Of a stretch of 59,935 nt of DNA, positions 38,353-57,691 are shown in pieces; position 1 is the first letter of the stretch; every line of letters begins with the position of its first letter. The stretch spans positions 1-59,935 of the forward strand of contig JARKQH010000351.1 of the NCBI GenBank assembly GCA_029974925.1. The letters run 5' to 3'. The position numbers and the translations under genes were made by a program. This DNA comes from Verrucomicrobiota bacterium. Its GTDB lineage: Bacteria; Verrucomicrobiota; Verrucomicrobiia; Limisphaerales; UBA8199. Under the pieces are notes generated by a model. It was not told the DNA's origin, made no database searches, and worked only from the letters and a program-made list of their open reading frames with translations.

Positions 38353-38656
38353 CAAACCGGGATTGGAAAGGAGGCTGGTGGTTGAGGCTCAGCCCCGGCC
38401 CCGACGGTGGGCTGTCCCCGGAAAATGGGCGGCATATGGGCTGACGAGGCCCGCCGATTACGAAGGAGGAAGCAGGGAAAGGCGGGTCTGATAATCGGAT
38501 TAAGGTCAGTCCGGAGGGTCGGCGGTCGGGCGGGAAGAATCTGGGTGAAAAAATCCACTTGTGAAAATTCGAACGTTGATGCACTGTCTCCGGGCTTTTG
38601 GGAAAACGATTGGCTTGACACCCCGGGCTGCGGTGTCTCCCGGATACGAATTAAAA

Positions 38657-39607
38657 ATGCTATTCGTTAGACTAACGTTAATTTGGCTCTGGATAGCCGG
38701 AGGCATGTGCGTCATGCCAGCCGTTGGCGCCGACCTGCATGCAAGTCCGGACGCGGCGGTCGGCGAGGTTTCGGCGCATGCGGAAGGGGTTGGGCACGAA
38801 CAACATCACGAGCTTCCGCCCAAAGCGCTGGAGATTGGCCGGGTGCTGGGCATTCCCATTACGAACTCGATGGTGATTTCGTGGGGAGTGGCGATTGGAT
38901 TGATCGTGTTTGCGCAGCTTGCCACGCGCCGCATGCAACTGGTGCCGTCCGGAGCCCAGAACTTCTGGGAGTGGCTGGTCGAAAGCCTGTATGATTTCCT
39001 CGAGGGCATCATTGGCAGCGAACTGGTCAAGAAGACCTTCTGGTTCTTTGCGACGATCTTCATCTTTATCCTTTTCACCAACTGGGTCAGCCTGATTCCC
39101 GGCGTCGGAACGTTGGGATGGGGCACGCGGACAGACCGCGGTTTTCAGGTCGAGACACCCTGGCTGCGGGGAGGCAACGCGGATTTGAACATGACCTTTG
39201 CCATGGCCATGATTTTCTTCGTCCTCTGGACCGTGTGGGCGCTCCAGGCCAACGGCGTGGGCGGCTTCATCAAGCACTTGTTCGCGCCCAAGGGAGACAC
39301 GACGGGATTCCTGAAGGCCCTGATGGTCATCGTATTCATTGCGGTCGGATTTCTGGAGATCATTTCGATTTTGTTCCGCCCGATCTCGCTGAGTTTCCGG
39401 TTGTTCGGGAATATTTTCGCGGGCGAGAACATGCTGGAGTCCATGATGGTGCTGGTGCCGTCGCTAAGCTGGTTGCTGCCGGTGCCGTTTTATTTCATGG
39501 AGCTGTTGGTGGGTCTGGTTCAGGCCATGGTGTTTATGCTGCTCACCGCCGTGTTCACCATGCTGATTTGTCAGCATGATGAGGAACACCCGGCCGCCTC
39601 TCATTAG
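38657..39607 (+). CDS. atpB: F0 ATP synthase subunit a
   Basis: ITNSM, P-x-GAQNFWEW, SLSFRLFGNIFAGE, LVQAMVF; start ATG 38657 likely. Confidence 0.95.
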   Translation: MLFVRLTLIWLWIAGGMCVMPAVGADLHASPDAAVGEVSAHAEGVGHEQHHELPPKALEIGRVLGIPITNSMVISWGVAIGLIVFAQLATRRMQLVPSGAQNFWEWLVESLYDFLEGIIGSELVKKTFWFFATIFIFILFTNWVSLIPGVGTLGWGTRTDRGFQVETPWLRGGNADLNMTFAMAMIFFVLWTVWALQANGVGGFIKHLFAPKGDTTGFLKALMVIVFIAVGFLEIISILFRPISLSFRLFGNIFAGENMLESMMVLVPSLSWLLPVPFYFMELLVGLVQAMVFMLLTAVFTMLICQHDEEHPAASH

Positions 39608-39695
39608 CGTCGGCGGGCGGTGAAAAATCCAATTTCGGCAGTTTGACCGTGTTCAATCGCGGGAGCTGCCGGACGAGAGAGAAAGGAAAACATAT

Positions 39696-39908
39696 ATGTT
39701 GATGCCTATGTTGGCGGAGTTGGCGGGCAACCTGCACGTCGGTCTGGCGGCGCTCGGCGCGGCCATCGGTGTGGGATTCATCGGCATGAAAGCCGCTGAA
39801 GCGGTCGGGCGCAATCCCGGCGCGGCCACCAAGATTCTGGTTCAGGCGATTCTCGCAATTGCGTTCGCCGAGGCCATTGTCTTTTACGCCATCTTCCTGG
39901 TGAAATAA
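39696..39908 (+). CDS. atpE: F0 ATP synthase subunit c
   Basis: GAAIGVG, GRNP loop, AFAEA essential Glu. Confidence 0.97.
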   Translation: MLMPMLAELAGNLHVGLAALGAAIGVGFIGMKAAEAVGRNPGAATKILVQAILAIAFAEAIVFYAIFLVK

Positions 39909-39957
39909 CCGCCAGGGGCGCGGGGCCCTTGCGGCTCCGCGCCCGGGCATTGAGCGA

Positions 39958-40515
39958 GTGTTTATGGAGCAGATCATGTTTTTTGGCAGTATCGGCAGCG
40001 ATTTGGCCGGGATGGCGAAGAACACCGCCCACACTTTCGGCGTGAACTGGCCGCTGTTTATCGCCCAGGTGGTCAACTTCACCCTCGTGGCGGTGCTGCT
40101 TTATTTCTTCGCCTATAAACGCGTGCTGGCCATGCTCGAGGAGCGGCGCCAGCGAATCGCCGAGGGCCTGGCCAACGCGGAGAAAATCAAGGCGGAACTC
40201 GCCCGGGCCGAACAACAGCGGCAGGAAACCCTGGCCCAAGCCAACGCCCAAGCCACCAAGCTCATCGAGGAGGCGCGGGCCGCCGCCGCCCGGGTGCAGG
40301 AGCAGGAAACCCAGAAAGCCATTGCCACCGCCGAGCAGATCATCAGCAAGGCCCGCGAGGCCGCCGCGGCGGACCACGCCCGCATGCTGGCCGAATTGAA
40401 GCGGGAAGTCGGCCGGCTGGTGGTGCAGACCACCGCCACCGTCACCGGCAAGGTTTTGACTCCGGACGACCAGCGGCGGCTGGCCGAGGAAGCGGCCCGC
40501 CAGATCGCGGCTTGA
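39958..40515 (+). CDS. atpF: F0 ATP synthase subunit b
   Basis: NWPLFIAQVVNF TM, LEERRQRI coiled coil; start may be ATG 39964. Confidence 0.95.
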   Translation: MFMEQIMFFGSIGSDLAGMAKNTAHTFGVNWPLFIAQVVNFTLVAVLLYFFAYKRVLAMLEERRQRIAEGLANAEKIKAELARAEQQRQETLAQANAQATKLIEEARAAAARVQEQETQKAIATAEQIISKAREAAAADHARMLAELKREVGRLVVQTTATVTGKVLTPDDQRRLAEEAARQIAA

Positions 40516-40528
40516 GGGGCGCAACGGC

Positions 40529-40921
40529 ATGAAAGTCTCGAAACAAGCGCGACGCGAGGCGAAAGCCCTCTTCCGCGGCTGTCTCCGTGACGGCGCGCTG
40601 GACGAAGGGCGGGTCAAGGCCTCCGTCCAATGGCTCCTCGAGCGCAAGCCGCGCGGCTACCTGGCCATTGCCGCCCACTTTCAGCGCCTGGTGAAGCTGG
40701 AATTGGAGCGGCGCACCGCCCGGGTCGAAAGCGCCACCCCGCTGGCGCCCGAGTTGCAGGCCGGCATCCAGACCCAGCTCTCCCGCCTGTACGGGGCAGG
40801 CTTGAACATCAATTTTGTGCACAATCCCGCCTTGATTGGCGGATTGCGGGTCAAGGTGGCGAGTGACGTCTATGACGGGAGCATCCAAGGCCGGTTGAAC
40901 CAATTGGCTGCCAGTTTTTGA
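40529..40921 (+). CDS. atpH: F1 ATP synthase subunit delta (short form)
   Basis: VESATPL, NPALIGGLRVKV...DGS motifs. Confidence 0.93.
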   Translation: MKVSKQARREAKALFRGCLRDGALDEGRVKASVQWLLERKPRGYLAIAAHFQRLVKLELERRTARVESATPLAPELQAGIQTQLSRLYGAGLNINFVHNPALIGGLRVKVASDVYDGSIQGRLNQLAASF

Positions 40922-40933
40922 TCAGATTCAGAT

Positions 40934-42466
<1,533 letters not shown>

Positions 42467-42475
42467 CGCCCGTCA

Positions 42476-43354
42476 ATGCCCAGCACCCGCGACATCCGCC
42501 GGCGCATCAAGTCGGTCAAGAACACGGCCCAGATCACCAAGGCCATGCAGATGGTCGCCGCCTCGAAAATGCGGCGGGCGCAGCAGGCGGCCCTGGCCGG
42601 ACGCCCCTACGCCACCATGATGAACGGCGTGCTGGCCGAGGTCACCCATCACGCCGGCGATTTCACCCACCCCCTGATGGAGGAACGGGAAATCAAGAAA
42701 CGCTGCGTCATCCTGGTCAGCAGCGACAAGGGCCTGTGCGGCGCCCTCAACAGCAATCTGCTGCGCGAAGCCGCCCGGTTCGACAAGGCCACCACCCTCT
42801 TCATCACCGCCGGGCGCAAGGCCGCCCAGTTCGTGGCCCGCACGCGGCGCCACCTGGCCGCCGAGTTCACCTACAAGGACGCGCCCTTGTTCAGCGAGGC
42901 GCGGGCCATCTGCAAATTCGCGCGCGAGCTGTTCGTCCGCGGCGAGGTGGACGTGGTCGAGGTGCTGTACACGAATTTTGTCTCGACGTTGAATCAAAAG
43001 CCCGAGGTGATCCAACTGCTCCCGGTGGGCGAGATCAAGGGCTTCACCATCGGCGTCCACGGCGAGGAGCGCGCGCAAAAACTCGAACGGGGCGCCACCG
43101 AGTTTTTGTTCGAGCCCTCGGCCGGGCAGGTGCTGGGGGCGTTGCTGCCGCACTACCTCAACTTCCAGATTTACCAGGTGCTGCTCGAGGCCAAGGCCAG
43201 CGAGCACAGCGCGCGGATGGTGGCGATGAAGAACGCGACGGACAACGCGCACCAGCTCATCCGCGACCTCACCCTGCAATACAACAAGATGCGCCAGGCC
43301 AGCATCACCAACGAGCTGCTCGAAATCAGCAGCGCCGCCATGGCCCTGAGCTGA
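42476..43354 (+). CDS. atpG: F1 ATP synthase subunit gamma
   Basis: IKSVKNTAQITKAMQMVAASK, SDKGLCG, RQASITNEL. Confidence 0.99.
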   Translation: MPSTRDIRRRIKSVKNTAQITKAMQMVAASKMRRAQQAALAGRPYATMMNGVLAEVTHHAGDFTHPLMEEREIKKRCVILVSSDKGLCGALNSNLLREAARFDKATTLFITAGRKAAQFVARTRRHLAAEFTYKDAPLFSEARAICKFARELFVRGEVDVVEVLYTNFVSTLNQKPEVIQLLPVGEIKGFTIGVHGEERAQKLERGATEFLFEPSAGQVLGALLPHYLNFQIYQVLLEAKASEHSARMVAMKNATDNAHQLIRDLTLQYNKMRQASITNELLEISSAAMALS

Positions 43355-43370
43355 CCCCCGGAATTTCTGA

Positions 43371-44789
<1,419 letters not shown>

Positions 44790-44813
44790 GCTGGCGCGCG
44801 CGCCCCACCCGTC

Positions 44814-45227
44814 ATGGCCAATCGTTTGAAACTCGAGATCGTCACCCCGGAGGCCCTGACCTACTCGGCAGAGGTCGAGATGGTCACCCTGCCGGGCATC
44901 GAGGGGGAAATGGGAGTTTATCCCAACCACGTGCCTTTGATGACCCAAATCATGGCGGGCGAGGTCATCGCGCGCAAGGATGGGCAGGATCAATTCCTGG
45001 CGGTGGGCGAGGGCTTTGTGGAGATCACCGCCGAACGGGTGGCGATCATGACCGACATGGCCATCCTGGCCGAGAACATTGACGAGGCCAAAGCGGAAGA
45101 GGCCCGCCGGCGGGCCGAGGCGCGCCTGAACGAAAAACTGGATGATGCCGAAGCGGCGCTGGTCAACGCGGCGCTGGCACAGTCCCTGGCCCAGCTCAAG
45201 GTCAAACGCCGCCAGCGCGGCGGGTAG
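44814..45227 (+). CDS. atpC: F1 ATP synthase subunit epsilon
   Basis: LEIVTPE, GEMGVYPNH motifs; last gene of the atp operon. Confidence 0.97.
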   Translation: MANRLKLEIVTPEALTYSAEVEMVTLPGIEGEMGVYPNHVPLMTQIMAGEVIARKDGQDQFLAVGEGFVEITAERVAIMTDMAILAENIDEAKAEEARRRAEARLNEKLDDAEAALVNAALAQSLAQLKVKRRQRGG

Positions 45228-45323: not shown

Positions 45324-47345
45324 TCAATGGCCGAGCAAGGCTTTTGCGGCGCGATAAACGTTCTCGGAAGTGAAACCAAACTGCTGCCACAATTCCTTGA
45401 ACGGCGCCGACGCGCCAAATCCCTCGCGGGCAATCAACGCCCCGTCCAGGCCAATGTAACGATGCCAGCCCAGCGGGGCGCCGGCTTCGATCGCCACCCG
45501 CTTCCGCACCGCGGGCGGCAGGACCTGGTCGCGATACTCGCGAGGCTGCCTTTCGAACAGCTCGAAGGAGGGCATGCTCACCAGCCGCACTTTGATCCCC
45601 TCGGCCGCCAGCTTCTCCGCCGCCTCGCAACAGAATTGCACTTCCGAGCCGCTGCCGATCAGGATCACGTCGGGCGTGCCGTTCGAATCGGCCAGGATGT
45701 AGCCGCCGCGTCGAAGCCCGGCGGCCGGCGCGTAGCGAGTGCGGTCCAGCGTGGGCATGGCCTGCCGGCTCAGGATGAGGGCGACGGGATTCTTTTGTTG
45801 CTCGAGGGCGACACGCCAGGCTTCGGCCACCTCGTTTGCGTCGGCCGGCCGGATGACCACCATGTGGGGAATGGCACGGAGGGCGGCGAGCTGTTCGATG
45901 GGCTGATGGGTCGGCCCATCTTCACCCACCCCGATGCTGTCATGGGTGAAGACATGAATCACAGGCAGTTCCATCAGCGCGGCCAGGCGCAGGGCCGGCT
46001 TCGCATAATCCGAGAACACAAAAAAGCCGGAGCCATAAGGACGGAGTTTGCAGAGGGCCATGCCGTTGCAAATCGCGGTCATGGCATGCTCGCGCACCCC
46101 GAAGTGGAAATTGCGGCCACCGTATGCGCCTTTGGCGAAGTCGCCCGCGCCCGACAGGTTGGTCTTGGTTGAGGGGGCCAGGTCCGCCGCGCCACCCAAC
46201 AACCACGGCACGGTTTTGGCAATGGCATTCAAAACCTTCCCGCCGGATTCGCGTGACGCCAGACCCTTCGCGTCCGCCGGGAATGTCGGAATCTCGCGGT
46301 CCCAACCCTCGGGAAGGCGGCCGGACTGAAGCAATTCCCACTCCCGCGCCAGGTCCGGATGGGCTTGGCCATAGGCGGCGAGCTGCTGTTTCCAGGCCTC
46401 CTCGGCCGCCGCGCCGCGCTTGAGGGCTTGCCGGGTGTGGTCCAGGACCTCCTGCGGGACCAGAAACTTGGCGTCCTCCGGCCAGCCGTAGCGTTTCTTG
46501 GTCAGGCGAATTTCCTCCTCGCCCAAGGGCTCGCCGTGGGCCGCGTGAGTATCCTGTTTGTTGGGGGCGCCGTAGCCGATGTGGCTGTCCACGATGATCA
46601 GCGACGGGCGGCTGGTTTCCTTGCCGGCCAGTTCGATTGCCCGGGCCAGGGCAGGGAGGTCATTGACATCGCCGACATGCTGCACATTCCACCCGTAGGC
46701 AAGGAAGCGGGTGGCGACGTCTTCGCTGAAAGCCAAATGGGTGCCGCCTTCGATGGTGATGCGGTTGTTGTCGTAAATCCAGAGGAGTTTGTGCAGACCG
46801 AGATGGCCGGCAAGCGAAGCCGCTTCGCTCGACACCCCTTCCATCATGTCCCCATCCCCGCAAATGGCGAAGGTGCGGAAGTCCACCAGTTCATGCCCCG
46901 GCCGGTTGAAATGCGCCGCCAGCCAGCGTTCCGCGATGGCGATGCCGACGCTGGTGCCCAAGCCCTGCCCGAGCGGGCCGGTGGTCACCTCCACCCCGGG
47001 GGTCAACCCATGCTCGGGGTGGCCGGGGGTGCGGCTGGCCCATTGGCGGAACCGCTTCAGTTCCTCGAGGGGCAGATCGTAACCGAACAAGTGGAGCAGG
47101 CTGTAAAGCAGCATCGAACCATGGCCGCCCGAGAGGATGAAGCGGTCGCGATTGGGCCACTGCGGGTTGGCGGGGTTGTGCCGCAGGTAGCGGTCCCAGA
47201 GGAGGTAAGCCACGGGGGCCAGCGCCATCGGCGCGCCCGGATGGCCGGACTTGGCCTGCTGAACGGCATCCATCGCAAGCGTGCGGATGGTGTTGATGCA
47301 AAGTTGGTCGAGCGGAGAGGTGGTTTGGCGATCGAGCGGGGTCAT
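45324..47345 (-). CDS. tkt: Transketolase
   Basis: [35 protein letters not shown]. Confidence 0.98.
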
Positions 47346-47384
47346 GTTCTGGATAAGATGGGTGAGGATTGAATCATGAGCGGA

Positions 47385-48140
47385 TCAGAGTTTGAGCGCG
47401 CGCTGGCGATAAGCTTCATCGGGGCGTCCCGCAATCCGCTGCACGTTCGCGTCGGAGAAGAAAACGGGGCCTCCCAACGCGGCCGCGCCGACGAAAATGC
47501 GGGCGGCTTTTTCAGCCATCAACATGGCCGAAAGCACGGCCTGGCGCGTGGCCCCCAGCGTAATGAGGCCGTGGTTTTCCATCAGCACCACGCGCGGTTG
47601 CTGATGCCGCTGTTTGATGAAATCCTCGGTGGCCTCCCGGATCGCTTGGGCCAGTTTCAAGCCCGGGTCCGTATAGGGCACAAAAACCGAAGCCGTGCCG
47701 CAGCAGACGATTTCGTCGGGAAACATCCGGCGGGTGGCGAAATCCCGCGCGCGCGGCGAGCAAAGGATTTGGTTCACGGTGGTGGCATGGCTGTGTCCGA
47801 CAAACTTGATGCCGGGCAACGTGAGGAAGTAGGCATGGAAAACCGCCTCGACCGACGGTTTCTTGGCGCCGGCATCCACGCGCGCCCCCAGCAGCGCCTG
47901 GTCAATTTCCTGGTCGGTGAGGCTGGCCTTTTCGAGCAACGGCAACAGCGCTGAAAACCGGCATTCGACAACGTCCTCGGGCTGGAGTGTGCCCAGACAG
48001 GTGCCGCTGGCTTTGACCAGAAAGGTTTCGTCGCCGAGGCGGGCGGAGGTGTTGCCCTCGCCCAGCATGGCCAGGCCGCGTTCTTCGCGGCCGATTTCAT
48101 GGGAGAGCGTGAGGAGTTCCTGGAGGATGGGATTTTGCAT
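47385..48140 (-). CDS. Class II aldolase/adducin family protein
   Basis: GEGNTSAR, KPSVE, GHSH, NHG metal motifs. Confidence 0.9.
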   Translation of the reverse strand: MQNPILQELLTLSHEIGREERGLAMLGEGNTSARLGDETFLVKASGTCLGTLQPEDVVECRFSALLPLLEKASLTDQEIDQALLGARVDAGAKKPSVEAVFHAYFLTLPGIKFVGHSHATTVNQILCSPRARDFATRRMFPDEIVCCGTASVFVPYTDPGLKLAQAIREATEDFIKQRHQQPRVVLMENHGLITLGATRQAVLSAMLMAEKAARIFVGAAALGGPVFFSDANVQRIAGRPDEAYRQRALKL

Positions 48141-48153
48141 AATTCAAGAGGGC

Positions 48154-48966
48154 TTAGTTCATTTCCTGGCCGCCGGTCACGCTGAGGGCAATGCCGGTGA
48201 TGTAGGAGGACTGGTCCGAGGCGAGGAAGACCACGGCGTTGCACACATCGTCGTACGTGCACCCGCGCTTCATGGGCACCTGGTTGATGTAGGCCTGACG
48301 CACTTCCTCGATCGTGGTGGCGCCGGGCACCTTGCCCGCGCGGAGGTACTGCACAAAAAGGCCTTTCTCCGGGTGGGTCCACAACGGCGAATCCAGCAGA
48401 TTGCCGGGGCAAATCGCATTGCAGCGAACGTGGTAGGGCGCCATCTCCAGCGCAACACTCTGCGTGTGCCCGATGCCGCCAAATTTGCTGGCCGCGTAGG
48501 CCGAGTTGGCGGCGCTGCCGCGTTTGCCCGACTTCGAGTTGATATTGATGATCGAACCGCTGCGCTGCGCTTTCATGATCCGGCACGCATGCTTGGTGGT
48601 CAGAAAATAGCCGAACAGATTCACATTCATCACCGCGCGCCAGCGCTCCGCATCCGCCTCCGCGATCGGCTCGGCAATCAAAATGGCGGCGTTGGCCACC
48701 ACAATGTCCACCCGTCCGAATCGCGCCACGGTGCGGTCAAACAGTGCCGCCACCTCCGGCTCGTGGGTGACGTCCACTTTGAGCCCCACCACCTCGCGGC
48801 CGGCTTCCCGGCCCAGCTCGCCCACCGCCGCCATGACACCCTGCTCGTTGATGTCCGCAACGACCACCTCGCAGCCTTCGCGCAGCAGGCGCCGGGAGAT
48901 GGCGTAGCCAAGCCCCTGCGCGCCGCCGGTCACAATCGCAACTTTGCCCTGCAAATCCGCGCTCAT
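48154..48966 (-). CDS. srlD: SDR oxidoreductase, sorbitol-6-phosphate 2-dehydrogenase-like
   Basis: TGGAQGLG, INSKSGK, NSAYAASKFGGIG, CPGNLLDSPLW resemble SrlD; start ATG 48966. Substrate unproven. Confidence 0.75.
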   Translation of the reverse strand: MSADLQGKVAIVTGGAQGLGYAISRRLLREGCEVVVADINEQGVMAAVGELGREAGREVVGLKVDVTHEPEVAALFDRTVARFGRVDIVVANAAILIAEPIAEADAERWRAVMNVNLFGYFLTTKHACRIMKAQRSGSIININSKSGKRGSAANSAYAASKFGGIGHTQSVALEMAPYHVRCNAICPGNLLDSPLWTHPEKGLFVQYLRAGKVPGATTIEEVRQAYINQVPMKRGCTYDDVCNAVVFLASDQSSYITGIALSVTGGQEMN

Positions 48967-50573
48967 GACTGCCACGCCCCTTTCACCAGCGCGTCCTCCG
49001 CTTCCCGGGTCCAACGGCCGTTGTCCAGCGGCAGCCGCCCCTCCAACTCCGGAAGCGCGGTGAGGCGCAGTCCCTTGCAGGCCGGATAGACAAGAATCTT
49101 GCCGGGCATCAGGTTCTTCTCCACCGCGCGAATCCCGTCAATCGCCCCTTCAAGCCCCGAGACGGCGGCGACGGAAAGATTGGTGTCGAGCTGGCGGGAA
49201 ACCACCTTGGAAAGGACCAGCTTCATATCTTCGAGCGTCGAGCCGCTGGTGCCGATGAAATAAAGCGCTTTCTCGATGTAAGCGTCCAAGTCCAGCTCGG
49301 CGGTGACGTTGGCCGGGATGCCGGCGAAGATATTGATGATGGCGTGCGGGGCGGCCGAAGGAATGGCCTGAACCACCAAGGCGGGCACGGGGGCCATCAG
49401 GACAATGTAATCGAATTTTTCCGCCAGCTTGTCCTTGCTGGGATTGTAGGGGCGCAAAACGAGGCCGTTTTTGCGCGCCACCGGCCCGGCCAGCTTTTCC
49501 AGGACCGCCAGGCGCTCATCACTGAGGTCGCCGGCATAGACTGTGACGCCGGGCACACCCTGGCACAGGTCACGGATGACATGCATCGTGCCCATCGGGC
49601 CCGCCGCCCCGATGATGTTGATTCTGTTGTTGGGGCGAATTTCGGCGGTGGGCGGGATGCAGCGCATGGCGGCGGCGGGATCCGATCCCGGCGTGCCGAT
49701 GAGGCGGATGCCGCCATAGTGGACGCGGCCAACCTGGGAAACCACGGGTCTGCCGAATTTTTGGCCACCTTGCACAATGTTGAACAAACCGCTGACCGCC
49801 ACTTTTGAAAACAACCGTTCAACGGTCTGCGGATTTGCACCGAAGTAGATGACGTCGTCGTAGGCTGCGTCCTTCAGGCCGGCCACTTGGTCGGCCGTAG
49901 CGAAGGTGGTGTTGGCCGGCTGCCCCGGAAGATGGCGCACGCGCGACGGGTCCACCGGCGACTCGCCGACCACCAGCAATTGTCCGCCAGCCTTGAGGGT
50001 TTGGCGCTGCTTTTCGACGTAGGAGTCCTCCACGCAAGCCCACGGTTCGCATAATGCCAGGGCCGAGGCTGAAAGGTCCTCCGGCACGGGAATGAGCATG
50101 GATTCCCCGTCCGGCGCCGTGATCACCCGCTCATCCATTAAAACGTATTCCTGCAGCGCTCCTTCAAAATTGTAGCCGAAGGCGGAAGCAGACCCCGCCG
50201 TGGGCAGCCAGCGGTAATCCGTTTGGACAAGGTATCGCTCGCCCGGTTTGTACCGCGTCACCTGGCTGCCTACCTTGACGATCCGAACCACGGTCTCGTG
50301 GCCGGGAACCGTCGGCTTGTCGCCCGGCACATAATTCGGCATTTCCGCCAAAGCCGATCTTTCAATGCCGGATGCCACCTCGGACTTCCGGGCGTGCCCG
50401 GAGAATTGCTTGAGCAGTTTCAGGTCTGAAAAGCACAGTCCGACAACCTCGACCCGCCCAAGGATTTGGCGCGGGCCGGGTTGAAAGACCGGTTTGGCTG
50501 CGTTGAGGCGAAGCTGGTCGGGGCCAACCAACTGGACGGCTCGTTGTGTTTGCGGGAGGGGAATGTTGTTCAT
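48963..50573 (-). CDS. Zn-binding (MDR) dehydrogenase, L-sorbose-1-phosphate reductase-like, extended
   Basis: GLCFSDLK, PGHE, EPWAC, GAAGPMG, GTSGS; start ATG 50573. Confidence 0.8.
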   Translation of the reverse strand: MNNIPLPQTQRAVQLVGPDQLRLNAAKPVFQPGPRQILGRVEVVGLCFSDLKLLKQFSGHARKSEVASGIERSALAEMPNYVPGDKPTVPGHETVVRIVKVGSQVTRYKPGERYLVQTDYRWLPTAGSASAFGYNFEGALQEYVLMDERVITAPDGESMLIPVPEDLSASALALCEPWACVEDSYVEKQRQTLKAGGQLLVVGESPVDPSRVRHLPGQPANTTFATADQVAGLKDAAYDDVIYFGANPQTVERLFSKVAVSGLFNIVQGGQKFGRPVVSQVGRVHYGGIRLIGTPGSDPAAAMRCIPPTAEIRPNNRINIIGAAGPMGTMHVIRDLCQGVPGVTVYAGDLSDERLAVLEKLAGPVARKNGLVLRPYNPSKDKLAEKFDYIVLMAPVPALVVQAIPSAAPHAIINIFAGIPANVTAELDLDAYIEKALYFIGTSGSTLEDMKLVLSKVVSRQLDTNLSVAAVSGLEGAIDGIRAVEKNLMPGKILVYPACKGLRLTALPELEGRLPLDNGRWTREAEDALVKGAWQS

Positions 50574-50583
50574 GGAAAAAAAA

Positions 50584-51879
50584 CTAATCAATCCGGCTGA
50601 GAATTGCCTCAGGGGTAACCTCCTCCCCCAGGCTGCCAAGACAGCTTTCGCCGCCCGGACGAAGCCTCCGGCCGATCTTTTCGTAAAACTCATTCCGCGC
50701 GTCGGGGGAGGGGAACCATTTGCGGCTCCAAGGGCTCAGATACCCCAAGCCCGCGCGGCGTTGGAGCACGGAATGGGCATAAACAATGTGAGCCCCTTTC
50801 CGGAAAATGGGCAGCAAGGGGGCCAGTTCCGCCGTCTCGAACGAATCAACAAACTTGTTGCCCGGCGCGTTCATCTCCGTCCCGACGAGAATCGGGAACT
50901 GGCGCTTTTCAGCCTGCTCCACCACCTCGTAAAGGTTGCGCACTTTCTCATCCTTGACCCCGGGCGTGTAGTTGCGGTCCGGAATGATGTTCAGGGCGGC
51001 GGCGCCACTGGCGAGGGCAACCTCGAAGAGCTCGTCGAGAGCCCGCTCGCCGGCGGAGGTTCCGTCCAGCCAGGTCAAGGTCGGAATCGCGCCGCACTCG
51101 AGAATGAATCGGTTCATGTCGGCCATGAGCGGGAAGGAGCCCGCCCCGGGCTGCACGTAACCAACCCCGCCCTGTTTCATGGTCCGCGCGCGAATCAGGT
51201 TTTGCAGCTTGGCCCCTTCGGGCGGGGCGTCCCCCAGCTTTTGTTTCCAGAAGCTGGCGCGCGCGGCGGGATCGGGAAAGACAGCGGCCGCCTTGCGCTG
51301 GTAGGCCTCGCAAAGGTGGCGCTCGGTCGCGTTGCCTTTCGGGGTGAGGGGCAGGACATCGCGGGCAAAATCCAGCTCGACGGGGCTGAGGAAGGTGTTG
51401 ACGCGGCGGGCCACGTCCTGCGTCCGCTGGGCCGCGGCCTGGCGCATGGCATCGAGAAAGGGATGCCTGGCCTCCCGCGTGAAACCAACCCCCATGTGAT
51501 AGGCAATGCCCGGCTCTCCAGGAGAATTGATCACCCGGGTGGCGAATTCGGGCACATAAACCCTCGACTCGAGACTCACACACGCCTTGAGCTCGAGCAA
51601 ACGGCCCGCCTCGAGAAACTCCTCCAACCCGTCCAGCACGTCGAAATCCACAATTCCAGCCACCTCGAGACCGGCCTTGCGGGCCAGCCAGGCAAAATGC
51701 GAGGGCGAATAACCGTAGGCGTTGTAGGAGAAAAACGTGTGCGCGTGAAGATTGATCGCCCCCCCGGGCGCCGGCAGCACAATTCGTCCCGAGCGGGCGG
51801 CTTCGATCAGCGCCAGCAAGGCTTCCCGACGACGGCTGGCGTCGAACTCATCAAGTTGCTTTTCGAACCGTTCAATCAT
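50584..51879 (-). CDS. PHP-domain protein
   Basis: INLHAHT...GIVDFD N-terminal PHP motif; start ATG 51879 likely. Confidence 0.75.
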   Translation of the reverse strand: MIERFEKQLDEFDASRRREALLALIEAARSGRIVLPAPGGAINLHAHTFFSYNAYGYSPSHFAWLARKAGLEVAGIVDFDVLDGLEEFLEAGRLLELKACVSLESRVYVPEFATRVINSPGEPGIAYHMGVGFTREARHPFLDAMRQAAAQRTQDVARRVNTFLSPVELDFARDVLPLTPKGNATERHLCEAYQRKAAAVFPDPAARASFWKQKLGDAPPEGAKLQNLIRARTMKQGGVGYVQPGAGSFPLMADMNRFILECGAIPTLTWLDGTSAGERALDELFEVALASGAAALNIIPDRNYTPGVKDEKVRNLYEVVEQAEKRQFPILVGTEMNAPGNKFVDSFETAELAPLLPIFRKGAHIVYAHSVLQRRAGLGYLSPWSRKWFPSPDARNEFYEKIGRRLRPGGESCLGSLGEEVTPEAILSRID

Positions 51880-52116
51880 AGCTGCCAAGGATGCCTCGCC
51901 GGCATTGCCGCAACGCAACCCGCTCGGAGGCTGGCCGCGATTGGGATCGAGCGCCGTGGAAGACCACTCTCAAAAGCGCCAGCATCCTAAAGCCGCGTTC
52001 CCACGGGTCAACTGCAAAAATCTCGACCACGCCGGCCAACGCGATCCCCCCGGCAGGGGGGCTGTGTCGGGATCGCCTTGGCTTTCAGGCGCGCGGCGGC
52101 TAAACTCCTACTGTTG

Positions 52117-52557
52117 ATGAGGAACCCTCGAACCAGGACGGCCCTGGGTCGCAACCTTGGCAGTTTGTTGGGGAGGCCCGGGAATTCGCCTGCGCGCGAG
52201 CATCCGACGGCCTCGACGCCATCGCTTTCCCCGGGCATTTCCGCCTTGGTTCACGGCGCGGCCAAAGATTCCCAAAGCGCGGAAAGGGGCGGCCCGTCGC
52301 AGTCTGGTGGTTCCCAGTCGCCGCCTGCAAACCAACGCGGCCCGGTCGAGTCCTTGCCCGTCAACCCCGGCAGGCGCAGGCGAACCCAACGCCTGCTCCG
52401 AGGGTCATTGCTTCTGGCCGACCTTGCCCTGGTCCTTTTGGTGGCCCGGCTCGCGTTTGGAGGAGACATCCAGCTTGGCGCCTGGGGGACGGTCTTGTGC
52501 GCGGTTGCCGTCACCCTCGGCGGCTGGCTGAGCTGGATGGCCTTCCGGTTGGAGTAG
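52117..52557 (+). CDS. Hypothetical membrane protein
   Basis: Low-complexity N-terminus, two C-terminal TM helices. Confidence 0.55.
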   Translation: MRNPRTRTALGRNLGSLLGRPGNSPAREHPTASTPSLSPGISALVHGAAKDSQSAERGGPSQSGGSQSPPANQRGPVESLPVNPGRRRRTQRLLRGSLLLADLALVLLVARLAFGGDIQLGAWGTVLCAVAVTLGGWLSWMAFRLE

Positions 52558-52703
52558 TCGCCCTGCCCACCGCCGGGTTTGCCCGGCCTCAAAGCCCGGG
52601 CCGGCCGGGGAGCGAAACTCCTTTTCGCACGCTTGCTGTCCCACGGCTGATGGGCAATCTTTACTCCCGCATGCTCAACGGTGAATCCACAACCTCACGG
52701 ATT

Positions 52704-53945
52704 ATGGCCTCTCCCACCTGGTGTGCTCCCGCCCTGAATCGCCGCAGTTTCCTGCGTTCGTCCCTTTGTGCCGGCGCGAGCCTGTTGCTTGTGCCAAGGA
52801 TGGGGCGGGGAGACGATACCCCCTCCTCCGGCCCGCCGGACATTCCTGCGCCGTGCGCCGCCGACCGTTGGCAAAAGCTGGGGGTGGTGCTCGAGCCGAC
52901 CGAGGCCTGGGAGGGCGATGACATTCAGAATTTTACCACCCGGGCCGAACCTTTGGACAACGAACGCTGGAGAATTTGGTATTCCACCTCGGGCGCGGCT
53001 CGCGCCTATGGCATTGCCTGGGCCGAGGGCGTGCCGGGTGAGCCGATGAAGAAGACCCCGGCCGTGTACACGACGGGAGCCGCGGCGGACGCTCCGTTGG
53101 CCATCGGAAACCTGCCCGAGAAATGGAAACCGGTCCAGCCGGTTCATCTCCAACTGCCCAATGGCCGCCACCGGCTTTATTTCTGGGCGCATGGCCCGCA
53201 AATCTGCCGATACCTCGCGGCGGAGAGCGACGATGGCCGCCGCTACCATGTGCTCAATCCACTCGAAGGAGTGCTTTATCATCCCAACGACCGCGCGGCT
53301 TTTGGCGTCCCTTCACCGGACGGCGTCATGTTCCGCCGGGAAAAGAGCCCGGACCGCCCCGCCGGCGAGGCGGCGGCGACCCCTCCATTGATTTCCAATG
53401 ACGCCACGAACATCTATCTGCTGCCGGATGGCTCGTTCGAGCTCTACACGGTGGCGTTGGTGCCGGTTCCCAAATCCGATCCGGCCTATATCGCGGAAGA
53501 CAATGCTCCGGGTTACTTGCGGGTGGTGGACCGCCTGGTCTCGGGCGATGGACTGCACTTTGAAAAGCGCCAACGGATTATTCAGCGCGATGCCAACGAC
53601 TTTGTGGACCAGCAGTTTTACTACCTGTCCATGACGCCGACGCCCCGCGGGCGCGTAGGCATGCTGGGGCATTATCGCTGCGCCGCTCAAACCATGGACC
53701 TGGAGTGGTGTTTTTCGCCCGACGGCGTGAAATGGCACCGGCCAAGCCGCCAGGCCTGGATACCCCGCGGAAACCCTCCGGCTCCGGACTGCTACGGCAT
53801 TTACGCCGCCAGCCAGCTCGTCAACCAGAACGGACGCTGGCACCTCTTTTACACCGGCGTCAACAGCGCCCACAACGGAAAACACTCGTACGGCAAGCCT
53901 CGACAGGTCATTATGCTCGCCATGACCCGGTCAATCTGGGCCTGA
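52704..53945 (+). CDS. Tat-exported beta-propeller glycoside-hydrolase-like protein (GH32/43/130 clan fold)
   Basis: NRRSFLR twin-arginine signal; repeated W-x-x-W-Y, S-x-DG-x-x-(F/W/Y) and HLFYTG propeller patterns. Confidence 0.7.
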   Translation: MASPTWCAPALNRRSFLRSSLCAGASLLLVPRMGRGDDTPSSGPPDIPAPCAADRWQKLGVVLEPTEAWEGDDIQNFTTRAEPLDNERWRIWYSTSGAARAYGIAWAEGVPGEPMKKTPAVYTTGAAADAPLAIGNLPEKWKPVQPVHLQLPNGRHRLYFWAHGPQICRYLAAESDDGRRYHVLNPLEGVLYHPNDRAAFGVPSPDGVMFRREKSPDRPAGEAAATPPLISNDATNIYLLPDGSFELYTVALVPVPKSDPAYIAEDNAPGYLRVVDRLVSGDGLHFEKRQRIIQRDANDFVDQQFYYLSMTPTPRGRVGMLGHYRCAAQTMDLEWCFSPDGVKWHRPSRQAWIPRGNPPAPDCYGIYAASQLVNQNGRWHLFYTGVNSAHNGKHSYGKPRQVIMLAMTRSIWA

Positions 53946-53965: not shown

Positions 53966-54697
53966 TCACCCGCTCATTCGCGGGTCCGGGATGCCAAACC
54001 GGGCCTTGATGGCCAGCAAATCCTTTACTTGCGCGGGCGACATCTCGGACAAGGGCCGGCCCAGTTGCGCGGCGATGCAGAGCGTCTGACAATACGCCTC
54101 GAGAATCTCCAGCTTGAAGTAGGCATCCTCAAGGCTGGAATGGCTCCACGCGACCACCCCGTGGTTCGCCATCAGAATGGTGTTGTGGCGGTCCACCAGC
54201 GCCGCCACCTCGTGACCCAAATCGGGCGTCCCCGGCGTCCGATATGGCGCCAGAGCCGTCGAAACAAACAGTTCGTATTCCGAAATCCGGCCCGTCGGCG
54301 GCACAATCCCCGCCAAACCGTAAGCCGTTCCGTAGGGGGGATGTCCGTGAACGGTCGCCACCGCCCGGGGCTGGCGTTTCATGATTTCCAAGTGCATCAG
54401 AATCTCGCTGGTGCGCCGTTGGTCCCCGGCCATCTGCGCTCCGTTCAGGTCCACCAGGCACAAATCTTCAGGCTTCATGAAACCTTTCGAGACCAGCGTC
54501 GGGGTGCATAATACCAGGTCGGACGCCACCCGAATCGCCAGGTTGCCACCATTCCCATCCACGTAAGCCCGCTGCCACATCCGCCGGCCCACATCACAAA
54601 TCTGTTGCTTGCAGCGCGTTACCTCCGGCCCGTTGAAAAACTTCTCAATTTCCACCCGCGGGCTCTTTGAACTGATCTCCGCCAATGCGTCTGTCAT
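53966..54697 (-). CDS. Class II aldolase (fuculose/rhamnulose-1-phosphate aldolase-like)
   Basis: GNGGNLAIR, TPTLVSKG, TSEILMH, VHGHPP, NHG; start ATG 54697. Confidence 0.9.
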   Translation of the reverse strand: MTDALAEISSKSPRVEIEKFFNGPEVTRCKQQICDVGRRMWQRAYVDGNGGNLAIRVASDLVLCTPTLVSKGFMKPEDLCLVDLNGAQMAGDQRRTSEILMHLEIMKRQPRAVATVHGHPPYGTAYGLAGIVPPTGRISEYELFVSTALAPYRTPGTPDLGHEVAALVDRHNTILMANHGVVAWSHSSLEDAYFKLEILEAYCQTLCIAAQLGRPLSEMSPAQVKDLLAIKARFGIPDPRMSG

Positions 54698-54904
54698 GGT
54701 TGCGCCCCAACATAGGTTCCTCCGATTGGGCTGTCGAGCCGCCACCCGCCCAAACATTTTCTGAAACAAAAAGCCCCTGCGGTGGGTTATGCCTGCAGAC
54801 GAATGTATGAAAATCGTTTGGGTTAAACCGCTGAGTTATGCCAGTGTTTTGCTTGTGGCCGGCCGCCGTGCCTGAAACGTCGTCCGCCCGCCCAGGGCAA
54901 CTCG

Positions 54905-55543
54905 ATGACCGAAACGCAAGAGTTCGAGACGTTCATGCGTAATTACCAGAACATGGTATTCACGACCGCCCTGCGCCTGGTTGCCAACCCCGCCGAGGCC
55001 GAGGACATCTCCCAGGACGTATTCCTGAAGGCGTTCCAGCACTTTGCCGATCTCCGCGCCAACCCCTCCGCTGGCGGCTGGCTCAAACGCGTCGCGACCA
55101 ACCTCAGCCTGAATCACCTCACTCGCTACCGTTCCCGCTGGCGCTTTTTCTCCGAATTCTCCTCGGGCAGCGAGGACGACGTGGAGGACGGCGTCGAGTT
55201 TCCCGCCGCACAGGACATCGAAAGCGACCTTGACCTCGCCGACCGCCACCAACTGGTCGAGGCCGCGCTTCAAAAGCTGCCCGCCGCCCAACGCGTCCCG
55301 CTGGTCCTTTATCATCTCGACGGCCTCGGTTACGAAGAAATCGCCGCCCGCCTCAACGTCTCACTGGCCAAAGTTAAAACGGACATTTTTCGCGGACGCG
55401 AAGCGCTGCGCCGGAAATTGCGACTCAAACTGGAAGAAAACCCGGGCGATGGCAGCGCTGCCACGGCCGCGGCAACCAGCCAGGCGGGGCAGGGCAGGGG
55501 ACACCACGCCGACGGAGCTTCGCTTTCGGCCCGCAGCTCTTGA
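54905..55543 (+). CDS. ECF RNA polymerase sigma factor
   Basis: AEDISQDVFLKA, WLKRVATN, YEEIAARLNVSLAKVKTDIFRGR. Confidence 0.95.
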   Translation: MTETQEFETFMRNYQNMVFTTALRLVANPAEAEDISQDVFLKAFQHFADLRANPSAGGWLKRVATNLSLNHLTRYRSRWRFFSEFSSGSEDDVEDGVEFPAAQDIESDLDLADRHQLVEAALQKLPAAQRVPLVLYHLDGLGYEEIAARLNVSLAKVKTDIFRGREALRRKLRLKLEENPGDGSAATAAATSQAGQGRGHHADGASLSARSS

Positions 55544-55559
55544 CGAAGGCACCCATTCC

Positions 55560-56030
55560 ATGAACCCAGACTACGAAAAACAACTGGACGCCGCGGTGGA
55601 TCGGATGCTAAAAGGCCTGCCGGACGTTGAAGCGCCCCCCAGTCTGGCGCCGCGGGTCCTGCGTGCTCTGGAGGCGCGACTCGCGCCCGCCGCGGCGCGG
55701 AGGTCCTGGCAAAACTGGCCCGCGTCGTTGCGTTGGCCGGCGCTGGCCGCCCTGGCCGCGTGCTTTGCTGCGCTTTGTTTCGGTTCCTGGTGGCTGGTCC
55801 AAACCGAGCCGCTCACGCTGGCCTGGCATCAAATCGAGGCGTGGGGGGCTCAGATTGCGACCTTCTGCAATGCCTTCAAAGCCGTGCTGGGGGCGGTCTT
55901 CCTGGCCATTCGACAACTCAGTCCCGCCCTCCTGCTGGGCGGCTGCGTTGCCGCCGCCCTGGCCTACGGCTGTTGCCTGGCCCTGGGCACCGTCTATTTC
56001 CGCCTGGCATTGAGCAGGTACAAACACTGA
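55560..56030 (+). CDS. Putative membrane anti-sigma factor
   Basis: Directly after the sigma; APPSLAPRVL motif; two TM segments. Confidence 0.7.
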   Translation: MNPDYEKQLDAAVDRMLKGLPDVEAPPSLAPRVLRALEARLAPAAARRSWQNWPASLRWPALAALAACFAALCFGSWWLVQTEPLTLAWHQIEAWGAQIATFCNAFKAVLGAVFLAIRQLSPALLLGGCVAAALAYGCCLALGTVYFRLALSRYKH

Positions 56031-56044
56031 ATTGAGGATTCCCC

Positions 56045-57691
56045 ATGAAGAACCATATCTCCACATACCTTGCTGTGATGGGCTTGAGTGCCGCCGCCTG
56101 CGCGGCGCCGCTTGCCACGCCCCCGCTGGCCGCCGGCTCGGTTCCTGAGCCCGGGACCCAGCTCCTCCACACCATCCTCCATCCATCCCTTTCCATCCTT
56201 CATTCCCACCTCAGCGGACTGCCAGCGCCCATCCTGGCCCAGGTCGCTTTGCCGGAAGAGCCGGCGGGCACGCCGTCAGGGCAGGGGAAACAAGGCCTCC
56301 GGCGGGACGCGCTTGTCGTGATTGGCAAGAGCGTGGAACTGGCCGCCGAGGACACCGCGGATGCGGTGGTCGCCATCGGCGGCTCGGTTACTATCCACGG
56401 GAAAGTTACCGGCGCTGCCGTCGCCATCGCCGGAAATGTCACGGTTCACGGCGAAGTGAAAGACGCGGCCGTGGCGGTTCTCGGCGATGTGAACGTCGAG
56501 CCAGACGCCCTCGTTCGCGGGGATGCGGTGGCCGTCGGCGGACGCGTGAAGGTGGCGGAGGGTGGAACCGTCCAGGGGGGCACACAGGAGGTGGATTTCG
56601 GGATGCTGGGAATTGCCACGCCCGAGTGGCTGCGCTTGTGGTTTGTGGAATGCGTCCTAAAGCTGCGCCCCATGGCCCCGAACGTCGGCTGGCTGTGGGG
56701 GGTCGCCGGCGGGTTCTTCCTGTTCTATTTCCTGGTCGCCCTGCTGTTTCCCCGGCCCGTCCGCGCCTGTGCCGAGGAGTTCATCGAGCGGCCCGCCACC
56801 ACGTTCTTGATGGGGTTGCTGACAAAAATCCTGGTGCCGGTTGTGTTCGTCATCCTCGCCGCCACGGGCATTGGCCTGGTCGTCATTCCGTTCCTTTGCG
56901 CCGCATTGATCTTCGCCGGCATCATTGGAAAAGTCGCCCTCCTTCAAGCCATGGGGGTGGCGGCGGGACGCCAATTGAACAATTCGTTGCTGCAGAAACC
57001 CCTCATCGGGTTTTTCCTGGGCGCCATCTTCCTGCTGGTCCTTTACATGGTGCCCGTGCTGGGCCTCGTCGCCTTCAGCGTCGCCGGGGTCTGGAGCATC
57101 GGCGGGGTGGTCACGGCAACTTTTGGCGGCCTGCGACGCGAGATTCCGCCGAAGACAGGCGGGCAGCAGGCGGGACCACCGGGCCTCAACGCCGGCTTGC
57201 CCCCCTCCGATTCGGCTGCCTTCACCGCCCCGGCCGGGGACGCAAGCATGGCATCCCCCTCGCAATCCCTTGCCCCAACGGGCGCCGTGCCGCCCGTGAC
57301 CGAATTGGTTTCCCACCCTCGCGCCTCATTCTGGGAACGCATGGGCGCCGGCTTTCTGGACACCGTCCTGGTCAGTATTCTCAGCGCGGTGGTTGGCGGT
57401 CCGCCCCTGGGTTTTCTGGTTGCCCTGGCCTATTTTGCGGGCATGTGGGCGTGGAAAGGCACGACCATTGGCGGCATTGTCCTGGGTCTGAAAGTTGTCC
57501 GGCTCGATGGCGCCGCCGTGACCTTCCCCGTCGCCCTGGTCCGCGGCCTGGCCGCCGCCTTCTCGGTGGTTGTTCTCTTCCTCGGCTTTCTCTGGATTGC
57601 CTGGGACAAGGACAAACAGGGTTGGCACGACAAAATCGCCGGAACCCTGGTCCTCAAACTGCCCCGCGGCACGCCGCTGGTTTGTTTCTGA
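56045..57691 (+). CDS. Membrane protein with bactofilin-like beta-helix repeats and C-terminal RDD domain
   Basis: AVVAIGGSVTIHGKVTGAAVAIAGNV repeats; multiple TMs; RMGAGFLD, TIGGIVLGLKVV, QGWHDKIAGT RDD motifs. Confidence 0.85.
   Translation: MKNHISTYLAVMGLSAAACAAPLATPPLAAGSVPEPGTQLLHTILHPSLSILHSHLSGLPAPILAQVALPEEPAGTPSGQGKQGLRRDALVVIGKSVELAAEDTADAVVAIGGSVTIHGKVTGAAVAIAGNVTVHGEVKDAAVAVLGDVNVEPDALVRGDAVAVGGRVKVAEGGTVQGGTQEVDFGMLGIATPEWLRLWFVECVLKLRPMAPNVGWLWGVAGGFFLFYFLVALLFPRPVRACAEEFIERPATTFLMGLLTKILVPVVFVILAATGIGLVVIPFLCAALIFAGIIGKVALLQAMGVAAGRQLNNSLLQKPLIGFFLGAIFLLVLYMVPVLGLVAFSVAGVWSIGGVVTATFGGLRREIPPKTGGQQAGPPGLNAGLPPSDSAAFTAPAGDASMASPSQSLAPTGAVPPVTELVSHPRASFWERMGAGFLDTVLVSILSAVVGGPPLGFLVALAYFAGMWAWKGTTIGGIVLGLKVVRLDGAAVTFPVALVRGLAAAFSVVVLFLGFLWIAWDKDKQGWHDKIAGTLVLKLPRGTPLVCF

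Follow-up and report, generated by a model that had tools for sequence, protein, structure and literature searches.

A gene run at positions 45324-51879 of the contig JARKQH010000351.1 of a Verrucomicrobiota bacterium (GCA_029974925.1, positions 1-59,935; this whole stretch of 59,935 nucleotides is referred to as the window) contains a conserved unit, PHP-MDR(-SDR-aldolase), in which a PHP-fold protein is paired with an oversized medium-chain dehydrogenase/reductase (MDR), to which a short-chain dehydrogenase (SDR) and a class II aldolase may be added. We tentatively propose, with a probability of roughly 0.4, that this module serves phosphorylative catabolism of L-rhamnose (a 6-deoxyhexose), in which the methyl-carbinol end of the sugar would be oxidized to pyruvate/acetyl-CoA. 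Gene identities at the level of family or fold, synteny, gene fusions and phyletic patterns are the direct results from which this proposal is drawn. The source genome assembly is 97.6% complete and its closest relatives are Verrucomicrobiota metagenome-assembled genomes (MAGs). The genes of the run, in the order of transcription, are:

50584-51879, minus strand: putative PHP-fold metalloprotein of 431 amino acids, first gene of the run (fold match; Pfam and NCBIfam silent)
48963-50573, minus strand: oversized zinc-type MDR dehydrogenase of 536 amino acids (PF08240 ADH_N only)
48154-48966, minus strand: SrlD-clade SDR of 270 amino acids (NF009050, 299.5 bits; cut-off 307 bits)
47385-48140, minus strand: stand-alone class II aldolase of predicted RhaE type (aldII), 251 amino acids (PF00596, 2e-23)
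45324-47345, minus strand: transketolase (tkt), which ends the run (TIGR00232, 877 bits; cut-off 682 bits)

All five open reading frames (ORFs) are on the minus strand; they are co-oriented and tightly spaced, as an earlier note on this DNA had described them, with spacers of 10 nucleotides between PHP and MDR, -4 between MDR and SDR, 13 between SDR and aldolase and 39 between aldolase and tkt. The stop codon of the MDR gene and the start codon of the SDR gene overlap as ATGA and, consequently, the SDR is translationally coupled to the MDR. A promoter and terminator scan identified no terminator-like sites above chance between the five genes.

Seventy-nine loci were fetched with the MDR as a query and analyzed by tblastn and ORF clustering. 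They include 49 non-planctomycete loci, which are from Verrucomicrobiota and from MAGs labeled as Alphaproteobacteria, Methylomirabilota and Gaiellaceae, and 30 planctomycete loci. Labels such as Sedimentisphaerales, Methylacidiphilum-like and Roseiarcus-like also occur among the carrier MAGs. The PHP gene is directly upstream of the MDR gene in 46 of the 49 non-planctomycete and 27 of the 30 planctomycete loci (~73/79). An SDR gene is found after the MDR gene in 40/49 and 0/30 of these loci, respectively, and the aldolase gene follows the SDR gene in 21 of the 49. Natural PHP::MDR fusions of 945-968 amino acids also exist (P0121-P0123). Because of this near-constant adjacency and the natural fusions, PHP and MDR are most simply regarded as a functional pair, and probably also as a physical pair. 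The claim of the earlier note that the run represents an undescribed, conserved gene module of sugar-phosphate type is thus upheld, as no description was found in the literature searched, and PHP-MDR(-SDR-aldolase) is kept together across loci. The transketolase, which that note had placed in the same route, is not: it follows the module in only one of the 49 non-planctomycete loci (L008, the nearest relative) and in none of the 30 planctomycete loci, i.e., in 1/79 overall. It possesses the N, Pyr and C domains and is the only gene above the transketolase cut-off in the source genome, so that it is a housekeeping copy that ends the operon, outside the conserved module, and is probably co-transcribed with the module in this lineage only. 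Since tkt is rarely syntenic and is the sole canonical copy, the suggested link to the pentose phosphate pathway lacks comparative support. Two more transketolase-like loci below the cut-off are found on contigs C7 and C144 of the source genome, one as a 618-amino-acid frame and the other split into N- and C-terminal parts beside an FGGY-like kinase; both may encode enzymes of transketolase-like type that are sugar-specific. A Planctomycetota MAG (JBDRTM010000302.1; L083/L084) carries rhaB-PHP-MDR twice in inverted orientation, with ~4.7 kb between the two MDR genes; this inverted duplication is either genuine or introduced by the assembly.

The genes around the module point to L-rhamnose. In the planctomycete loci the order is FolC, RhaB-like kinase, PHP, MDR, GH172, RhaA, an unknown gene and often a bifunctional aldolase/SDR. 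The rhaB-like gene is directly upstream in 26/30 of these loci, and RhaA (25/30), GH172 (21/30) and a RhaEW-like gene are found downstream; the RhaB-like kinase scores 490 bits on the rhamnulokinase model and RhaA scores 692 bits on its own. The metagenomic locus L109 encodes a GH106 rhamnosidase, RhaA, a RhaE-type aldolase, a PHP::DUF89 fusion, an MtlD-like dehydrogenase, a PfkB kinase (1-phosphofructokinase-like) and a long MDR, while RhaB-like kinases adjoin the module in the loci L111, L127 and L139, and Verrucomicrobiota loci are among those with such a kinase beside the pair. The source genome possesses its own rhaA-rhaT-rhaB on contig C102; neither a RhaEW bifunctional gene nor a bacterial microcompartment shell protein was found in it. 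Among 201 genomes of the phylum, of which 17 contain MDR orthologues and 10 contain distant long-MDR paralogues, RhaA is found in 15 of the 17 orthologue genomes and in 101 of the 184 others, counts that, like those for LutB/LutC and for the fused E1 given below, are descriptive only, since related genomes are not independent. Earlier, the run had been described as lacking a phosphotransferase system (PTS) and a kinase. This is correct for the operon and its immediate flanks, where no kinase or PTS genes were found, but RhaB-type or PfkB kinases adjoin the module in most of its relatives and rhaA-rhaT-rhaB is found elsewhere in the source genome. General polyol salvage, which the earlier note had put forward, gives way to a context of L-rhamnose/deoxyhexose catabolism together with a dedicated 2-oxoacid-dehydrogenase complex. 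In the genome G107 (L138, 1186-5746), a PHP-MDR-SDR-mutarotase-PfkB-DeoR-E2-E3-E1 array is adjoined by genes for a 439-amino-acid protein that carries two class II aldolase domains in tandem, for a RhaB-like kinase and for a sulfate permease of the SulP/STAS type, a setting that may hint at sulfated deoxy sugars.

LutABC convert L-lactate to pyruvate. No LutB/LutC (LUD_dom, PF02589) was found in the 17 orthologue, 10 paralogue or five planctomycete carrier genomes, compared to 53 of the 174 others, and no LldD was found in the source genome. Non-carriers of the same phylum contain DeoR-RhaEW-RhaB-RhaA-LutABC (G024) or RhaB-aldolase-RhaA-LutABC (G180), and a Deinococcus plasmid contains rhaI-rhaEW-rhaB-lutABC. 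Rodionova et al. (2013; PMC3870299) report lldD/lldEFG, i.e., lactate dehydrogenase genes, as members of RhaR regulons in organisms with RhaEW. In ~15 non-planctomycete loci from three phyla, the module continues into, or is preceded by, genes encoding a DeoR regulator, a fused E1 alpha-beta (E1ab), E2 and E3; in G107 the PHP-MDR module and the DeoR-E1ab-E2-E3 genes are on one strand within 12 kb. DeoR-E1ab-E2-E3 of the source genome is on contig C472. As the source genome also contains AceE/AceF, in addition to two further E2 genes, the DeoR-linked E1E2E3 is an extra complex, and its being the only pyruvate dehydrogenase of the cell is ruled out. The fused E1ab is found in ~13/17 MDR-orthologue and 10/10 paralogue genomes, compared to ~32/174 others, and it co-varies with the MDR at the genus level within two families (f17 and f24); it is mostly absent from planctomycete carriers. 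The E1 beta part passes the pyruvate-dehydrogenase E1-beta subfamily model.

The 431-amino-acid PHP-like protein has zero Pfam matches at E <= 0.001 and zero NCBIfam matches. Its AlphaFold model, folded with 21 homologues, has a predicted local distance difference test score (pLDDT) of 88.7, and the top Foldseek match of the model is 2yb1 (E of 2.8e-10, template modeling score by target of 0.69), accompanied by 3o0f/3e0f and RNase AM (9etk), with E-values of the top matches from 3e-10 to 4e-8. Judged by this model, the PHP identity holds at the level of the fold, a distorted (beta/alpha)7 barrel. PF02811 is only faintly matched in a fused PHP orthologue and is carried by 12%-25% of the members in the nearest ESM Atlas clusters. 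Throughout the family, which comprises 255 clusters at 50% identity (E <= 1e-30), HxH (H45, H47) and E104 are invariant. Compared to 3e0f, SDG is replaced by SYN (the Asp being Y/N) and DHD by DFD (the motif-II His being F79), so that the full set of PHP trinuclear ligands (HxH, SDG Asp, motif-II His, Glu, His, His, DxH) is not found, the C-terminal ligands being outside this comparison. With ~90 invariant positions, many Arg/Lys among them, the PHP-like protein is in our reading a putative enzyme whose metal site is altered rather than a relic. In a second type of fusion (P0124; L109, 8001-10481; 826 amino acids, 14 member sequences), the PHP-like domain is joined to a DUF89/ARMT1-type phosphatase-family domain.

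An ordinary zinc MDR possesses a single Rossmann domain, ~340-380 amino acids in total and, in the alcohol dehydrogenase type, a structural-zinc lobe. The MDR of the window, with 536 amino acids and PF08240 ADH_N (GroES-like) as its entire Pfam content, departs from this description. In its model (pLDDT of 79), which has the fold of the polyol/threonine/butanediol dehydrogenase type, a second Rossmann-like beta/alpha unit is inserted at residues ~190-310, ahead of the GxGxxG Rossmann domain, in agreement with the extra internal domain that had been noticed in the earlier note. C47, H92 and E93 correspond in the alignment to the residues that bind the catalytic zinc in alcohol dehydrogenases (GlCfsD and PGHE versus GvChtD and PGHE of 1llu/4z6k) and are invariant in 23 sequences, the structural-zinc lobe of four Cys is absent with an invariant QTDYRW loop in its place, and many Lys/Arg in the loops around the zinc site are invariant. 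D349 follows the GxGxxG strand, and together these residues indicate a cofactor of the NAD type. Conserved loops at residues 50-68, 79-91 and 119-137 are modeled with low confidence. More than 5000 MDR relatives were among the scored candidates, the best 120 of which are 74-100% identical to the window protein, and the orthologues are 60-90% identical across two phyla. Some orthologues carry the automatic name L-sorbose 1-phosphate reductase from the Joint Genome Institute (JGI); no SorE model was among the NCBIfam matches of the window proteins. Distant long-MDR paralogues of 27-36% identity, in frames of 550-830 amino acids, are found at L119-L125 (genomes G002, G136, G013, G166, G082 and G058) and L130, where they adjoin PfkB/FGGY kinases, DeoR/GntR regulators and sometimes an SDR, without PHP. 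A plasmid search with the MDR found only one of these, a 31%-identical paralogue of Deinococcus (sp. AJ005 plasmid, L130) in the order SDR-MDR-FGGY-GntR. A kinase together with a long MDR is thus a wider theme.

The SDR scores 299.5 bits on the sorbitol-6-phosphate dehydrogenase model NF009050, just below the cut-off, and its orthologue from G107 scores 308.2. A maximum-likelihood tree places the SDR of the window, together with nine orthologues, in a clade with SrlD of Escherichia coli (98/95), which is on a long branch; this is in line with the earlier assignment of the protein as SrlD-like. The RhaW domains of Deinococcus, Rhodococcus, G024 and the planctomycete fusion form a separate sister clade (97/95). 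Consequently, the idea that aldII and the SDR are a split RhaEW is ruled out for the SDR and is kept for the aldolase. Among the NCBIfam models, aldII is best matched by bifunctional aldolase/SDR families, through their N-terminal domains. In an alignment, aldII shares with the RhaEW N-terminal domains the HxH + H zinc triad (HSH, NHG), the PSxE motif (PSVE) and a ~35-amino-acid RhaE-specific insert that is absent from AraD and from a second aldolase of the window, aldII_b, which identifies aldII at the sequence level as a RhaE-type class II aldolase. The RhaEW equivalog TIGR02632 has a cut-off of 568 bits, compared to 55 bits for aldII and 166 bits for the SDR, which are separate genes. The second aldolase is:

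53966-54769, minus strand: class II aldolase, FucA/OtnC-like (aldII_b; PF00596, 8e-40; OtnC model 112 against 250 bits)

aldII_b is 2 kb upstream of the PHP gene and ~6 kb from aldII, is conserved in L008 and scores below all cut-offs. Its homologue in G180, at 51% identity, is ~2.4 kb from rhaB, and weaker FucA-like aldolases (30-33%) adjoin rhaB in G180, G045 and G107. Judged by these similarities, aldII_b may be an alternative ketose-1-phosphate aldolase of the same regulon as the operon. With this FucA-like neighbor and the FucA-like aldolases of the G180 rha operons, the case for aldII as the only possible rhamnulose-1-phosphate aldolase is weakened. The source genome contains three class II aldolase folds, the third being AraD in an ara cluster.

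In the proposed phosphorylative route, L-rhamnulose-1-phosphate would be made by the rhaA/rhaT/rhaB cluster elsewhere in the genome and would be split by the RhaE-type aldolase to dihydroxyacetone phosphate (DHAP) and L-lactaldehyde. The dehydrogenases would then bring the deoxy end, CH3-CHOH-, to the oxidation level of a ketone, with the SDR as a counterpart of RhaW and the NAD-type zinc MDR acting with its obligate PHP-fold partner, and the carbon would exit as pyruvate/acetyl-CoA via the DeoR-linked, fused-E1 2-oxoacid-dehydrogenase complex. PHP-MDR would thereby fill the slot that is held by LutABC in related rhamnose operons. We infer all the substrates, as well as catalysis by the PHP-fold partner; candidate substrates of the MDR are L-lactate, L-lactaldehyde and C5 of a ketose-1-phosphate. 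The fold class of the MDR counts for this proposal, as threonine, butanediol and polyol dehydrogenases oxidize CH3-CHOH- groups. Several observations weigh against it. The SDR clusters with a hexitol-phosphate dehydrogenase, SrlD of E. coli, not with RhaW; the mannitol-1-phosphate-dehydrogenase-like gene that replaces the SDR gene in L109 favors sugar- or polyol-phosphate substrates; and the distant MDR paralogues, which are found with PfkB/FGGY kinases and SDRs but without PHP or aldolase, suggest sugar-phosphate substrates as well. RhaA is absent from two MDR-orthologue genomes (RhaI was not searched for). The complementarity with LutABC is partly phylogenetic, as whole families are without LutABC, and an NAD-dependent L-lactate dehydrogenase above the cut-off rules out that this step is missing from the source genome, so that the lactate-oxidizing step is not strictly lacking. 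To the best of our knowledge, no zinc MDR is a lactate dehydrogenase. Finally, the proposal does not explain what the PHP partner does, and the predicted metal site of this protein departs from that of canonical PHP phosphoesterases.

The SrlD/MtlD-type partners and the constant kinase neighbors are better suited to an alternative built by analogy with SorE/SrlD, which we regard as possible but doubtful. MDR and PHP would reduce the C2 keto group of L-rhamnulose-1-phosphate to a 6-deoxyhexitol-1-phosphate, the SrlD-clade SDR would re-oxidize it at C5 to a 1-deoxy-ketohexose-6-phosphate, an acetoin-like methyl ketone, and the DeoR-linked thiamine-pyrophosphate (TPP)/lipoyl E1E2E3 would cleave this ketone to acetyl-CoA and a tetrose-4-phosphate that enters the pentose phosphate pathway. 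Neither lactaldehyde nor lactate would be formed, which suits the absence of LutABC, and the class II aldolase fold would be an epimerase or part of a parallel branch. Such a carbonyl shift is consistent with the placement of the SDR in the SrlD clade and its translational coupling to the MDR, with the non-homologous replacement of the SDR by an MtlD-like hexitol-phosphate dehydrogenase in L109 and with the L-sorbose-1-phosphate reductase names given automatically by JGI to several MDR orthologues. Kinases are also the most constant neighbors of the whole long-MDR family, PHP-less paralogues included, the extra E1E2E3 under a DeoR regulator of sugar-phosphate type co-occurs with the MDR family at the genus level in f17 and f24, and the many invariant Lys/Arg around the zinc site count in the same direction. 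However, three unprecedented activities are required, and the RhaE-type aldolase and the PHP partner are left without a role. Planctomycete loci lack the SrlD-clade SDR, having the RhaW-clade fusion only, and planctomycete carriers are mostly without the fused E1, whose beta part passes a pyruvate-dehydrogenase subfamily model. By our own working of the stereochemistry, L-rhamnulose would give L-erythrose/D-threose phosphates unless an epimerase intervenes. Still less probable, and in our view unlikely, is the more specific claim that PHP-MDR, the SrlD-clade SDR and the fused-E1 complex together make up a lactaldehyde-free 6-deoxyhexose route in which the keto group is moved to the deoxy end and the TPP/lipoyl complex cleaves the 1-deoxy-ketose phosphate directly to acetyl-CoA and a tetrose phosphate.

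Two further explanations are less likely than both the phosphorylative route and the carbonyl shift. In the first, the MDR would oxidize L-rhamnulose-1-phosphate at C4 and the PHP-fold protein would hydrolyze the resulting 2,4-diketone to DHAP and L-lactate, a lactaldehyde-free parallel to the aldolase/dehydrogenase pair, by analogy with the LRA5/LRA6 steps of the non-phosphorylative pathway. Although this would explain an obligate and sometimes fused PHP-MDR pair right after the kinase, and a PHP pocket with HxH/E and many invariant Arg/Lys suits an anionic substrate, we know of no C-C hydrolase with the PHP fold; such a step would be redundant with RhaE/RhaEW of the same operons and would make L-lactate in carriers without LutABC and a source genome without LldD, all of which makes it improbable. 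Least probable is the scheme of the earlier note, in which all five genes, tkt included, salvage polyol/ketose phosphates into the pentose phosphate pathway; PHP would then act as a sugar-phosphate phosphatase. The tight spacing, the 39-nucleotide gap before tkt without a terminator-like site, the phosphoesterase relatives of the PHP fold and the fusion of PHP to a DUF89 phosphatase-family domain in P0124 speak for it, but a sole canonical tkt that is syntenic in 1/79 loci, a PHP protein without the motif-II His and SDG Asp of phosphoesterases and the futility of a phosphatase within a kinase-dependent catabolic operon make it improbable.

The other features of the window around the run include its upstream region:

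51880-52496, no strand assigned: divergent intergenic region 5' of the PHP gene, a probable promoter region

The scan identified a single sigma-70-like match in this region (52011-51984, minus strand), which is no better than chance. Divergent from the PHP gene, a 482-amino-acid ORF for a predicted secreted protein at 52497-53945 (plus strand) possesses a twin-arginine-like signal (RRSFLRSS); it has no Pfam or NCBIfam matches and, among the fetched loci, is kept only in the nearest relative, L008. An ORF for an ECF-type sigma factor, an overlapping ORF for a probable anti-sigma factor and a gene for a 548-amino-acid multi-pass membrane protein are at 54905-57691 (plus strand), and they are followed by LepA at 57749-59539. 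On the other side, a complete F-type ATP synthase operon (38561-45227, plus strand; subunits a, b, alpha, gamma, beta and epsilon are recognizable from the translations) is convergent with the run and ends 97 nucleotides from the 3' end of tkt.

Polysaccharides of plants, algae and bacteria contain rhamnose and fucose as major sugars, and bacteria of the Planctomycetes-Verrucomicrobia-Chlamydiae group are key degraders of such polymers in soils, peat, sludge and waters. While the superfamilies are known, the literature searched yielded no account of the PHP/long-MDR pair, nor of its fusions, its position within rhamnose operons or its connection to an additional 2-oxoacid-dehydrogenase complex. 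PHP-MDR probably marks an undescribed step in the breakdown of deoxy sugars. Because a conserved pair without a description in that literature is found in rhamnose operons in place of lactate-oxidation genes, current pathway reconstructions for the carrier organisms would miss a step. Once the chemistry of PHP-MDR is solved, two groups of proteins would gain a function, namely the PHP-fold family in which the metal site is altered and the MDR subfamily in which the Rossmann domain is duplicated, and it would become clear whether sugar catabolism has recruited a complex of the pyruvate-dehydrogenase type. If true, the lactaldehyde-free route would open a new way for deoxy sugars to enter central metabolism and would add a new substrate class for 2-oxoacid-dehydrogenase complexes.

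Among the known systems, the RhaEW-type L-rhamnose pathway consists of RhaA/RhaI, RhaB and a bifunctional rhamnulose-1-phosphate aldolase/L-lactaldehyde dehydrogenase (YuxG of Bacillus subtilis and Caur_2283 of Chloroflexus aurantiacus; PMC3870299), with lutABC/lldD as its extension. The module shares with it rhaA, rhaB, a DeoR-type regulator, a RhaE-type aldolase with the zinc triad and insert, an SDR from the sister clades of SrlD and RhaW, a RhaW-clade fusion in planctomycetes and an extension beyond lactaldehyde. In contrast to the RhaEW pathway, however, the aldolase and SDR of the module are separate genes, the SDR is on the SrlD side, LutABC are missing, the most conserved genes are PHP and the 536-amino-acid MDR, which are foreign to the described pathway, and an extra E1E2E3 is linked. 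The enterobacterial SorE/SrlD system for L-sorbose/D-glucitol likewise combines a zinc MDR with a following SrlD-clade SDR, and, as in that system, the substrate of the module is presumably phosphorylated. The window operon differs from it in having no PTS, an obligate PHP partner and a gene context of rhamnose rather than sorbose; its MDR is ~130 amino acids longer than SorE, with an inserted Rossmann-like domain and without the structural-zinc lobe, while its SDR is within 8 bits of the cut-off of the SrlD model.

The PHP phosphoesterases, i.e., the 3',5'-bisphosphonucleotide phosphatase Cv1693 (2yb1), BAD_1165 (3e0f) and RNase AM/TrpH, have the barrel, an insertion domain, the N-terminal HxH and the conserved Glu in common with the window protein. 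The latter is below the Pfam thresholds, has replacements of the SDG Asp and the motif-II His and is longer by ~140 residues, and it invariably comes with a dehydrogenase, as a partner or as a fusion, without a nucleic-acid or nucleotide context. Similarly, the DeoR-linked complex has in common with acetoin/pyruvate dehydrogenase complexes a TPP-dependent E1, an E3 and a lipoyl E2 that carries an E3-binding domain, but its E1 alpha and beta are fused (~770 amino acids), its genes run in the same direction as that of a DeoR regulator, the genome has AceE/AceF besides and the complex co-occurs with the long-MDR family.

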